Virus record (IMG/VR): IMGVR_UViG_2703718823_000005
DNA from: a virus
Taxonomy: Duplodnaviria; Heunggongvirae; Uroviricota; Caudoviricetes
Length of the DNA: 46,805 nt
Direction: 5' to 3' (one strand)
Shown here: piece by piece, positions 21,001 to 24,000 of the stretch
Layout: each line of letters begins with the position of its first letter
How positions within the stretch are numbered: position 1 is the stretch's first letter
Position numbers: made by a program

Positions 21001-24000
21001 ACAGTCTCCAGTTCTGAGCCTGATGCTGAATGGCATTAGCGCCGGTGCCCGGTGTTTTAGCACCGCCACTTCCTCCGCTACCACCAGCCTTATGCATCGC
21101 ATATGCACCTACCGCACCCAAACCAGCGCCAACAAGAGAGGCTCGCCCCTGCTGTTTCGTAAACGCAGCCTGTGCGTCCGATTTAGCTTTTGCCAGACTG
21201 CTGTCTGCCAGCGAGTTAAAACTCTGTAACGCATCCGCCTTCTGACCTGAACCGAGAGCTGCAACATCCTGTAGCCCGGCAACATACTTATCTGCCTGCG
21301 ATACCTGCCCCCGTGTGGTTGTGTCAATCTGCCCGGTTACCTGATCACTCTGGTTCGCATTCATTACCGCGTTAAAGCGACCACTGGACGGGTCAACACC
21401 GGACTGAGCAAGATTACCCGCCAGCTCCTTCCGTGCTTCGCCAAACTGTTTCTGATACCCCAGATTTGTGGTGCCAGCGATATTGTCGTACTGCTGCTCA
21501 CTGTTCAGGTCATCGACCTTTTCCATGAAGTTATCTTCAGCCGGGCGGAGGATATTTTTGTAATCCTGCCACCCTTTCCAGGCCACTTCTTCCTGTGCTA
21601 TTTGCGCTGCTGTTGGTTTTACTTTGGTATCACCACCACCTTTACTTCCACCCATAATGGCCCCCTGGATAATAAAAAAACCCTGCCGGAGCAGGGTCAG
21701 AATGTGAATTGCAATGTTGGTTTAAACACGATGATGAAAACTGTGGCAGTCAGACCGCTATCCTGAACACCATGAAGCCATCCTCATCATCCGGCATTCG
21801 CTCAAAGCCCAGACGTTTTCCCAGCCGGATAAATCCCCGCCTTGCCGTATGAAATTCAGCCCAACGTCCGCCAGCCAGACGGGTTAATGTCTTCACCTCC
21901 GGCAGATAACGCTCAACGCTGTTACTCCCCGTACACACGCCCAGCAACACCAGAACATAAGGGATACCATCAGCACTGAGCACAGAACGCAGCACCAGAA
22001 AGCCATCAGGTGCCTCAAAACAAAACGCCTGCTTTTTAAGGCAGGCGTCTTTAACTTCATTCATAAATTCAGGGTTGCGGGAATTTCTCACCACACGCTG
22101 CATATACCGGAGAATTTTATCGTTCATTCTCTCACCTGAAACGGGTGCCATATCGGCTGAACCTCAGCAACCAGTTGACGGGGACTTTCGTCCCCGTCGC
22201 GGTTTTCCTACTGCTTACACTGTAAGAACGCCGCAAACTCCGCTCCCCACAAATTCAGCCGGAACTCACACAGCGAACCGTGCAACATCCAGATAGTGAA
22301 GATAACCGTCATACAAATTGTGACGGTGATAAGCGATTTTTGCGACATAGCGCTTGCCTCCTGAGTGGAGAGGCGCTAACCTTCTACTTGTCAAGGTACG
22401 AAGTGTTAGGGCCTCGGGTTAACGTTAAGTTGACTCGGGGCCTTTCCACATCAGGCCTTCAGGTTCACCCTCCAGCCATCAGCCGAAAGGCACCCACGCA
22501 TAATTTACGGTTTTTGCCCTGTACGGGCAATAAAAAACCCGCCATCACAGCGGGTAGTAAACGGTTACCGGATACAGGTTAGAATTTCAGGCCAATGCCA
22601 GCAGTAATTCCACTCGTGCGCCAGTCGCCAGAGCCGGAACCTTCGTAAGCCACATCCAGTGTAACACTCTCATTCAGGTTAAACTGTGCACCTGCAGCCC
22701 ACGCAAGGGAGTTTTTTTTCGTGCTGTTGCTTTCAGAAAATCCGCCACTACTGTTAATATTGTCCTTAATTTTCAGGTCAGCGCTAACTTTAGCAACGCC
22801 CATCCCTGCCATCGCATATAAGCTCATGTACTGATTAACCCGCCATGAAGGCCCCGCTAACAGACTCCAGTAATTCGCCCTGATATCCGTTCTGGCAGAA
22901 GCTGCCGGATTCTTAATCTTCCTGGTATGATCGGCTGACTGCACATCAATAAATGTCTGTGAGTTAGTGAGAGAACGCGTCCATGTAAAAGAGGTGATAA
23001 CGCCAAAATCATCCGTTATCTCGTAGCGATACCTGATATTAATGCCCTGTGGATTTTTATCCTTGCCTTCATATCCACTGACCCGACCATCTGTATATTC
23101 GCCCAATGAAGAAAAGTAGTTTCTGTTGACGAAATGACTGAAAGTCTCCCTGTTATGAGCAGTCGCATCCTTTACAAAATCCTTCAGTCCCGGAAACTGA
23201 AAGTGCGCATACCCCAGAGAAATTGTATGGTTTCCTTCTGCTGCATGTGCAGATAAATTTACACAGGCAATCCCGGAGATTGCACACACAACCAGTGTTG
23301 CTATACTCTTCATTTAAGATATCCTGTATTCAGATAACACGCTAAACTTTTTAATAATACATCTTTTTAGACATTTTAAATGAATATTAAAGACTCGCTT
23401 CAACTAATCATATACTGATGTATTAATAACCAGGACCTTATCTATATACGGCTTTCGAATATCCCATGTTGCACCGCCGGAATAATGCTCACAGGAATAT
23501 ATTTTATTTCCTGTAGCACCAGTGGATGTGGTATAAATCGGTCGATCATAAGGAGTTCTTTTCCAGTTATAATACCCGACCAGTGCAGGCATGATTGCGC
23601 ATGGATATCCAAGGTCCTTTTCAAATTTGATATCAACAGGTATTAACTTCGCGTCAAGCAGCATCATTTCGCCATGATAAATCATCTCACCGTCCGGGTT
23701 ATACATGGCGATACCATACTCAGAAGGTGGAGTAACCATATTCGCGAAAGCATAAACCGTCGTAACACCAGGGTTCGTTCCCCTGACAATTACATGAAGC
23801 CTTAGTGCATGATATCCATCAATCTGTTCATGCGTGTACATGACATCGGCCTTCTTCTCTGTTCTGATAAAGAAAAAACAACTTTTGCCTGACGGGATTG
23901 ATGTTTTAAAAAAAGACTTTTCAGTCGCCGGTATGGTGCCTTTGTTGATCAGACACTGCGGCGTAAAACCTGGACTTATCCATACGCTGCCATCCGGCTT

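Follow-up and report, generated by a model that had tools for sequence, protein, structure and literature searches.

A probable portable hok/sok-type cassette beside lom in a Stx2a prophage, and the correspondence of its predicted antitoxin RNA to the 24B_1 'microRNA' of phage Φ24B

Our analysis concerns IMG/VR virus record IMGVR_UViG_2703718823_000005, a stretch of 46,805 nucleotides (nt) referred to here as the window, and within it a hok/sok-type locus on the minus strand between the stop codon of lom (22579) and the start of the next annotated gene (22151). Over the 500 bp around this locus, identity is 100 % to the Stx2a (Shiga toxin 2a) phages of E. coli O104:H4 (P13771), Shigella phage Ss-VASD and other genomes of Shiga toxin-producing E. 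coli (STEC), and 97 % to 933W, VT2-Sakai (Sp5) and Φ24B; the window is a 933W-type Stx2a prophage. The locus is very probably a self-contained 373-bp portable cassette of hok/sok type, lodged between lom and the next late gene. As a Hok-family gene it is of an ordinary, known kind that is already annotated, and the most consequential result of our study is that the predicted antitoxin RNA of this cassette is the RNA published as the 24B_1 'microRNA' of phage Φ24B. The features that carry this finding are as follows.

22208..22348, minus strand: open reading frame (ORF) of the Hok-family toxin, 46 amino acids (aa), MSQKSLITVTICMTVIFTIWMLHGSLCEFRLNLWGAEFAAFLQCKQ, stop codon TAG at 22210-22208; an N-terminal transmembrane segment is followed by the conserved C-terminal GSLCE...GAEFAAFLQCKQ with two invariant Cys.
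22357..22362, minus strand: Shine-Dalgarno (SD) sequence AGGAGG of hok, 8 nt before the ATG.
22354..22382, plus strand: antisense promoter predicted from conservation, with -35 TTGCCT (22354-22359), a 17-nt spacer and -10 TAACCT (22377-22382).
22388..22455, plus strand: predicted Sok-like antitoxin RNA of about 60-68 nt, both ends being putative.
22408..22444, plus strand: hairpin of the Sok-like RNA as predicted by folding, with 5' arm 22408-22423, loop 22424-22428 and 3' arm 22429-22444.
22388..22407, either strand: hypervariable recognition island, the Sok 5' tail on one strand and its target on the other, with the lowest conservation in the cassette.
22420..22439, plus strand: exact match to the 20-nt 24B_1 (TAACGTTAAGTTGACTCGGG) of Φ24B, inside the Sok-like hairpin.

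The 24B_1 RNA was sequenced from induced Φ24B lysogens as 2223 identical 20-nt reads, 80 min after induction, and was placed in the 'lom-vb_24B_43 region' (Nejman-Faleńczyk et al. 2015, PMC4426718). It has a single exact match in the window, where none is expected by chance. The Φ24B record HM208303 has it at 45711-45692, within an intergenic region that carries no annotation there but encodes the identical 46-aa Hok (45784-45924); 24B_1 is antisense to the leader of that ORF. The two boxes that the Φ24B authors predicted for their p24B_1 promoter, CGCTAACCT and TTGACT, are the -10 and -35 of the Sok-like promoter, the latter box reading TTGACT in both Sakai and Φ24B, and their 80-nt 'precursor' corresponds to positions 22387-22470 of the window. 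By these correspondences, 24B_1 and its '80-nt precursor' are the predicted Sok-like antisense RNA of the hok cassette. The 20-mer itself is most likely a product of cleavage, building up when late transcription supplies the locus with sense RNA in excess; its appearance only at 80 min fits the generation of duplex fragments after late read-through. An 81-nt form of 24B_1 is bound by Hfq with a Kd of 25 nM (Bloch et al. 2023, PMC10732415), which parallels the dependence of SokW on Hfq and RNase III (PMC8621323). Neither of the 24B_1 papers (PMC4426718, PMC10732415) mentions hok or sok; a 2017 review discusses hok/sok without a link to 24B_1, a 2025 review contains neither hok nor sok, and we found no link between 24B_1 and hok/sok in the searchable literature.

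A Sok-like antisense RNA opposite the hok leader, as the sequence-only reading of this DNA had anticipated, is well supported, by its promoter and fold as well as by the Φ24B 20-mer. Among the 58 distinct variants of the cassette that we compared, the antisense -10 TAACCT is found in 57, as is a -35 of the form TTGNNN, with a spacer of 17-18 nt. The -35 is located between the hok SD and the ATG, a layout that we presume resembles that of the R1 sok promoter. The RNA made from this promoter would begin with a single-stranded tail of about 20 nt and continue through a 16-bp hairpin into a CCUUUCCACAUC tail. Folding the 85-nt interval 22386-22470 gave -40.4 kcal/mol on the plus strand (z -5.94) versus -23.2 kcal/mol on the minus strand (z -1.26), and in each of the 33 distinct variants folded the antisense strand has the lower energy (mean -28.9 versus -18.4 kcal/mol), because invariant G·U pairs of the stem become A·C mismatches on the sense strand. 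The locus thus has the two marks of the cis-antisense RNA of a hok/sok type I toxin-antitoxin (TA) system, a promoter of its own and complementarity to the toxin leader. Majority identity falls to 0.63 within the recognition island (22400-22391), as opposed to 0.99-1.00 in its flanks, and at least six allele classes can be distinguished; this would be the pattern expected of a specificity determinant.

The toxin ORF described in the sequence-only reading is present at 22208..22348, and profile searches confirmed it as a Hok/Gef-family toxin gene with a match beyond chance. The peptide scores 33.2 bits against Pfam HOK_GEF (PF01848), whose gathering score is 22 (E 4e-08, residues 8-44), and matches PHROG 251 ('MokW-like host killing') with an E-value of 2.8e-24. 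A similarity confined to the hydrophobic stretch (residues 6-22) would have been of little weight, but in an alignment of 30 homologues the best-conserved columns are those of the C-terminal part rather than the transmembrane segment: GSLCE and GAEFAAFLQCK hardly vary, and C27 and C44 do not vary at all. The ratio of nonsynonymous to synonymous substitution rates (dN/dS) has a median of 0.24 over 271 pairs (27 distinct alleles), with dN = 0 at dS up to 0.30 among eight Stx-phage alleles, which shows the ORF to be under purifying selection. The AGGAGG ribosome-binding site was likewise found where it had been read (22362..22357); elsewhere the hok SD takes the form AGGAGU or AAGGAG. The nearest NCBIfam model, HokA (NF007290), gave 38.4 bits, far below its equivalog cut-off of 89, and the peptide is therefore a member of the Hok/Gef family that belongs to a separate 46-aa subfamily within it. 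A tblastn search with Hok-family peptides returned no second Hok-like place in the window; we take this search as a lead only, and the family call rests on the profile libraries. No defence-system model of PADLOC fits the 46-aa peptide or its neighbour.

Two kinds of divergent allele were observed. In the Stx2a phages LC616046, LC616035 and LC616064, the GGGG tract of hok (window ~22248-22245) is expanded to GGGGG or GGGGGGG, which shifts the frame after residue 35 (ending in LWGGGVCGVLTV and a stop) and destroys the conserved C-terminus; this is either a lineage-specific inactivation or a homopolymer sequencing error. Phages phi419 and phi367 have a mosaic cassette, with a leader of Sakai type and a strongly diverged toxin (MPQKTIIVSILCITIL..., dS above 1), which suggests recombination within the module.

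The identity of 24B_1 bears on how the published genetics is to be read. In Φ24B, deletion of the region led to less lysogeny, faster induction and more progeny, pointing to effects on the lysis-lysogeny balance instead of the prophage stabilisation or abortive infection first suggested, and ATP is lower in cells with the pUC18_24B1 plasmid or the prophage (PMC10732415). When we mapped the published primers, the 189-nt Δ24B_1 deletion corresponded to window 22546-22359: on the hok side it takes out the promoter, the complete leader and most of the SD, and with them all of the antisense gene and half of the lom terminator. The 565-bp insert of pUC18_24B1, the plasmid used for 'overproduction', corresponds to window 22658-22095 and contains the complete hok cassette. 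Because both the deletion and the plasmid include hok functions, no published experiment separates the RNA from Hok. Leakage of a Hok-family membrane toxin would be a straightforward cause of ATP loss, and the pUC18 clone of the whole cassette is tolerated and lowers ATP, in line with a membrane toxin that is repressed but leaks.

In the published view, 24B_1 is an autonomous, microRNA (miRNA)-like regulator acting in trans, processed from an 80-nt precursor to 20 nt, with d_ant, the region upstream of S, and sdhB as its targets, and the Hok ORF would be irrelevant to the phenotypes. The uniformity of the 2223 reads (PMC4426718), the complementation of the Δ24B_1 phenotypes in trans, and the pairing of the 20-mer with sdhB mRNA in vitro (PMC10732415) speak for it. 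That pairing is weak, with 8 ± 5 % bound at 100 nM, and the strain and the complementing or 'overproducing' plasmid are those whose hok content is described above. Moreover, 24B_1 is perfectly complementary along its whole length to the hok leader, and the antisense promoter and hairpin are conserved as parts of the hok cassette even in P2-like phages. In its strict form we hold the published view to be improbable, even though regulation in trans and a hok/sok function are compatible and not mutually exclusive. We somewhat favour the reading that the 24B_1 phenotypes (the drop in ATP, the lysogeny bias and the altered induction and burst) are due, in whole or in part, to the absence or excess dosage of a Hok toxin/antitoxin pair, with a leader that switches without mok and a recognition island that insulates co-resident cassettes from one another.

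The further features of the cassette and its sense mRNA are these.

22537..22555, minus strand: intrinsic terminator of lom from a terminator scan, ACCCGC-TGT-GATGGCGGGT followed by TTTTTT; upstream border of the cassette.
22515..22143, minus strand: block of homology shared with the cassettes of P2-like phages (BLAST and MAFFT), the 373-bp portable module.
22502..22530, minus strand: putative hok promoter, from position and conservation, with -35 TTGCCC (22530-22525), a 17-nt spacer and -10 TAAATT (22507-22502).
22143..22495, minus strand: putative hok-type mRNA unit of 353 nt, its 5' end set by the start of the Rfam model and its 3' end by the end of homology.
22479..22495, minus strand: predicted 5' element (tac-like), GGGUGCC (22495-22489) and UCGGCUGA (22486-22479), from the minimum free energy (MFE) fold.
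22143..22160, minus strand: predicted 3' fold-back element (fbi-like), GGCACCC (22149-22143) and UCAGCCGA (22160-22153), from the MFE fold.
22348..22378, minus strand: predicted 11-bp hairpin sequestering the SD and the A of the AUG, UAGCGC/GCGCUA plus UCUCC/GGAGG, from the MFE fold of the full-length RNA.
22177..22198, minus strand: 9-bp GC-rich hairpin GACGGGGAC-GAAA-GTCCCCGTC, starting 9 nt after the stop codon, in the 3' untranslated region of the hok mRNA.
22369..22415, minus strand: predicted Sok-target hairpin of the 3'-truncated mRNA, with the apical loop CUUGACAA at 22395-22388, obtained by removing fbi in silico.

The borders of the module are given by homology with Xuanwuvirus P88 and its relatives, which begins at 22515 and ends exactly after the GGCACCC box at 22143; the P2-like copies sit in unrelated genomic contexts. 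A consensus scan gave no promoter at threshold, so that the case for both promoters is made from position and conservation only. The spacer of the hok promoter is 17 nt in 57 of the 58 variants, TTGCC is retained in the P2-like cassettes, and 6 nt separate the -10 from the G at 22495. This G would be the 5' end of a leader of 147 nt, and the Rfam hok/sok leader model RF01794 aligns to 22337-22495 over its full length (model positions 1-157), with E-values of 2.7e-06 in 3 kb and 4.2e-05 in the whole window.

The full-length 353-nt RNA has an MFE of -151 kcal/mol. In this fold, its two ends are joined by a 7-bp helix (22495-22489/22149-22143) and an 8-bp helix (22486-22479/22153-22160), giving the hok-type mRNA a predicted 5'-3' (tac-fbi) closure that is conserved: GGGTGCC is present in 54 and GGCACCC in 57 of the 58 variants. 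True covariation is absent from the tac-fbi boxes since they are invariant, and the changes in the second helix across variants are GC-GU and UA-UG wobbles only. The SD and the A of the AUG are buried in the hairpin 22378-22348, whose six outer pairs are standard in 57-58 of the 58 variants.

The perfect 9-bp hairpin 3' of the stop codon is present as originally described (22198..22177), and its pairing is kept by compensatory double changes at two pairs (AT to GC or the reverse at one; CG, AT and GC at the other). It does not end the unit: the hairpin is not a terminator on the minus strand, because no run of U follows it, and the hok-type mRNA continues to the fbi box at 22149-22143. On the plus strand (22176-22199), where CGGTTTTCCT comes after it, the same hairpin is scored as an intrinsic terminator, which may stop antisense transcription coming from the downstream late genes ahead of the Sok promoter.

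P88 has a bidirectional intrinsic terminator 22 nt past the fbi box (1895-1922 of its locus), and in Stx phages the next gene follows the fbi box at once; this suggests that the Stx-phage cassette lost its terminator on becoming embedded in the late operon. That next gene is annotated as a 133-aa ORF (21750-22151, minus strand). The PHROG 610 profile aligns to it from residue 9 and the ATG at 22151 overlaps the conserved GGCACCC, for which reasons the gene probably starts at the ATG at 22127; its length differs between records (402 versus 378 nt).

In plasmid R1, Sok blocks the translation of mok, to which the translation of hok is coupled. The leader expected upstream of hok, with a mok-like frame and a sok-like RNA, was borne out in part: the 147-nt leader and the Sok-like RNA are there, and a conserved mok frame is not. 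A search of all overlapping frames in the 58 variants found nothing conserved with a start codon. A possible TTG start, 46 nt upstream of the hok ATG and lacking an SD, occurs in window-type alleles only, while the alleles of Sakai, Φ24B and most P2-like phages have stops and no ATG, GTG or TTG in either overlapping frame. Because of this lack of a conserved mok frame, repression is probably direct and structural, aided by cleavage of the duplex, rather than exerted through translational coupling.

Folding suggested how this might work. In silico removal of fbi lets the 5' end pair internally and leads to formation of the target hairpin 22415-22369 and to occupation of the anti-SD segment UAGCGCCUC; the hairpin loop at 22395-22388 and the 5' end of the antisense RNA are complementary. 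Folding predicts this hairpin for 24 of 25 distinct alleles; its base is conserved and its upper stem varies. Its loops are mostly YUNR, a motif that is common by chance, and this weak sign is not relied on here. In the window allele, the AUG is unpaired with a mean probability of 0.21 in the full-length RNA, of 0.54 after truncation and of 0.22 when the Sok site is blocked; in Stx-phage alleles, the accessibility of the SD/AUG similarly rises on truncation and falls back to the closed level once the Sok footprint is blocked. We keep such a switch, between an anti-SD and an anti-anti-SD located inside the Sok footprint, as a hypothesis only.

As we infer them, the transcript ends, 3' processing, mechanism of repression, toxicity and part played in the phage life cycle would combine in the following way. 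Transcription of the sense strand from 22495 to 22143 would yield an mRNA of about 350 nt encoding the 46-aa inner-membrane toxin. In its full-length form, this mRNA would be translationally silent, with its 5' and 3' ends paired and the SD and first base of the start codon buried. Trimming of the 3' end, by analogy with R1 hok, would free the 5' end and refold the leader, which would then show the target hairpin (22415-22369) and loosen the SD/AUG. The conserved promoter overlapping the hok translation start would supply the structured Sok-like RNA (~22388-22455), whose 5' tail would pair with the loop and the 5' arm of the target hairpin, returning the SD/AUG to its sequestered state and creating a substrate for RNase III. 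Hypervariability of both tail and target would prevent cross-talk among co-resident hok/sok cassettes. The hok gene has the orientation of the late operon, and the antisense promoter is directed towards it. Once the prophage is induced, late transcription antiterminated by Q would read through the lom terminator and produce an excess of sense RNA; this read-through would also hamper antisense synthesis, permitting late synthesis of Hok and the formation of duplex fragments.

Several observations weigh against a working hok/sok module of this kind. On the RNA side, RF01794 scores 37.9 bits where its gathering score is 59, RNAalifold found almost no covariation in the Sok hairpin (the lower stem is nearly invariant and the upper stem misaligned), and the RT-PCR (reverse transcription-polymerase chain reaction) that detected the published '80-nt precursor' used random-hexamer cDNA, which does not distinguish the strands. 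Both promoters are weak matches that the consensus scan did not report, that of hok agreeing with the consensus at 8 of 12 positions and falling under the scan threshold, and the terminator scan found no terminator after fbi in Stx phages, so that an autonomous mRNA would lack a defined 3' end. Without mok the canonical route of repression is missing, and the effect of the proposed switch is modest in Stx alleles, where the SD is concerned, and inconsistent in P2-like alleles. For the protein, the HokA and Hok models of NCBIfam both score far below their cut-offs, and the toxin would be dispensable in at least the one frameshifted Stx2a lineage.

Some of these points would also suit an evolutionary remnant, a hok/sok locus that has lost its active toxin and is carried as a passenger between lom and the tail genes. 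Loss of active toxin is the rule among the chromosomal hok loci of E. coli K-12, and here the frameshift in one Stx2a lineage, the absence of mok and of a terminator after fbi, and the weak promoters could be taken as signs of decay. What makes this unlikely, by a shade more so than the published view of 24B_1, is that most of the Stx-phage alleles retrieved, from a region matched by 198 phage records, have an intact and identical ORF, that dN stays at 0 in the presence of synonymous divergence, that the regulatory boxes are nearly invariant across cassettes from Escherichia, Salmonella and Citrobacter, and that deleting the region alters the behaviour of the phage. That the locus is mere punctuation, a terminator or processing site between lom and the downstream genes with an untranslated ORF, is very hard to credit: two stable hairpins and the lom terminator are present within a late operon, but the ORF passes the Pfam threshold and has codon-level signs of purifying selection, its strong SD is at the proper spacing, and the same cassette occurs in unrelated P2-like contexts.

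The preferred reading, a hok/sok-type cassette whose antitoxin RNA is 24B_1, can be set against known type I systems. With R1 and the chromosomal hok genes of E. coli (PF01848, RF01794), the cassette shares a small hydrophobic toxin with an SLCE...AAF core and a long structured mRNA closed by pairing of its 5' GGGUGC... terminus with the 3' end. It also shares a short antisense RNA composed of a single-stranded 5' tail and one long hairpin, an antisense promoter overlapping the translation start of the toxin, and a target in the leader well upstream of the toxin SD. It differs from them in the length of the toxin (46 aa versus 49-52 aa), in lacking a conserved mok frame and, in the Stx-phage copies, an intrinsic terminator after fbi, and in its distance from the reference models, RF01794 remaining below its gathering score and the closest named paralogue, HokA, at 38 bits versus 89. 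In tisB/istR-1 and zorO/orzO, there is no leader ORF and the antisense RNA binds the 5' untranslated region away from the sequestered toxin SD. These systems have no sequence relationship to the cassette, for which a standby-site mechanism is only a possibility.

A further comparison is with hokW-sokW of Sp5. Takada et al. 2021 (PMC8621323) showed this type I TA system to be dependent on RNase III and Hfq and to promote the release of phage; its deletion delays lysis and halves release (PMC8621323). The two are alike in being Hok-family type I TA loci of the same kind of Stx2 phage with a link to Hfq and RNase III, and in hokW-sokW the toxin is produced on prophage induction. HokW has 51 aa (MKQQKAM...DYESEK) as against 46 aa here. 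We considered whether the locus is hokW-sokW itself and rejected this, the hokW primers and 5' end being absent from the window. The hokW-sokW locus is located about 13 kb further right and on the opposite strand in VT2-Sakai (AP000422, ~60.1 kb) and 933W (AF125520, ~58.7 kb), records in which it is largely unannotated. Phages of the 933W type can thus carry two hok cassettes, and the ΔhokW-sokW strain (PMC8621323) retained the one adjacent to lom. Compared with 24B_1, finally, the DNA is the same, but the published RNA was presented as a miRNA-like regulator that acts in trans and stems from intergenic DNA without annotation.

The reported effects of 24B_1 may accordingly need to be read again, as the work on this RNA between 2015 and 2025 relied on a deletion and a plasmid in which both the RNA and Hok are altered. 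Compared with a 20-nt miRNA, a membrane-depolarising toxin would be the simpler account of the drop in ATP and the shift in the lysis-lysogeny balance. In 933W-type Stx phages, a second, uncharacterised hok cassette was still present in the hokW-sokW study, and because it remained there the conclusions on Hok function in Stx-phage release are incomplete. How 24B_1 is read affects our understanding of the induction of Stx phages and hence of toxin release. The cassette further offers a natural variant without mok and with allelic recognition tails, usable for studying Sok-type repression and the evolution of its specificity.

The locus had been thought unannotated, which is true of older records only (933W, VT2-Sakai and Φ24B lack annotation of the 46-aa ORF). 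The ORF is identical to WP_000078907.1, named 'Hok/Gef family protein' by RefSeq/PGAP, and several phage records give it toxin names ('small toxic polypeptide', 'prophage host toxic membrane protein', 'MokW-like host killing'). At a coverage of at least 80 %, the region is found in the 198 phage records referred to above and in 417 of 5426 complete E. coli genomes; the exact protein is present on at least 1000 public contigs, and the 46-aa subfamily occurs in Escherichia, Shigella, Salmonella, E. albertii and Citrobacter. A scan of a genome collection for the cassette returned 7 loci, 3 of them on contamination-like contigs. Contigs labelled as Xanthomonas pisi, a Planococcaceae metagenome-assembled genome and a Vagococcus sp. 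carry hok cassettes of enterobacterial type, with 76-100 % protein identity, most likely through assembly contamination.

Elsewhere in the window, Rfam matches were found to STnc100, a gammaproteobacterial small RNA (sRNA), at 46203-46416 on the minus strand (195 bits, gathering score 47), and to two copies of sRNA-Xcc1 about 535 bp apart on the plus strand, at 5949-6033 and 6484-6569 (53 and 74.5 bits, gathering score 53).

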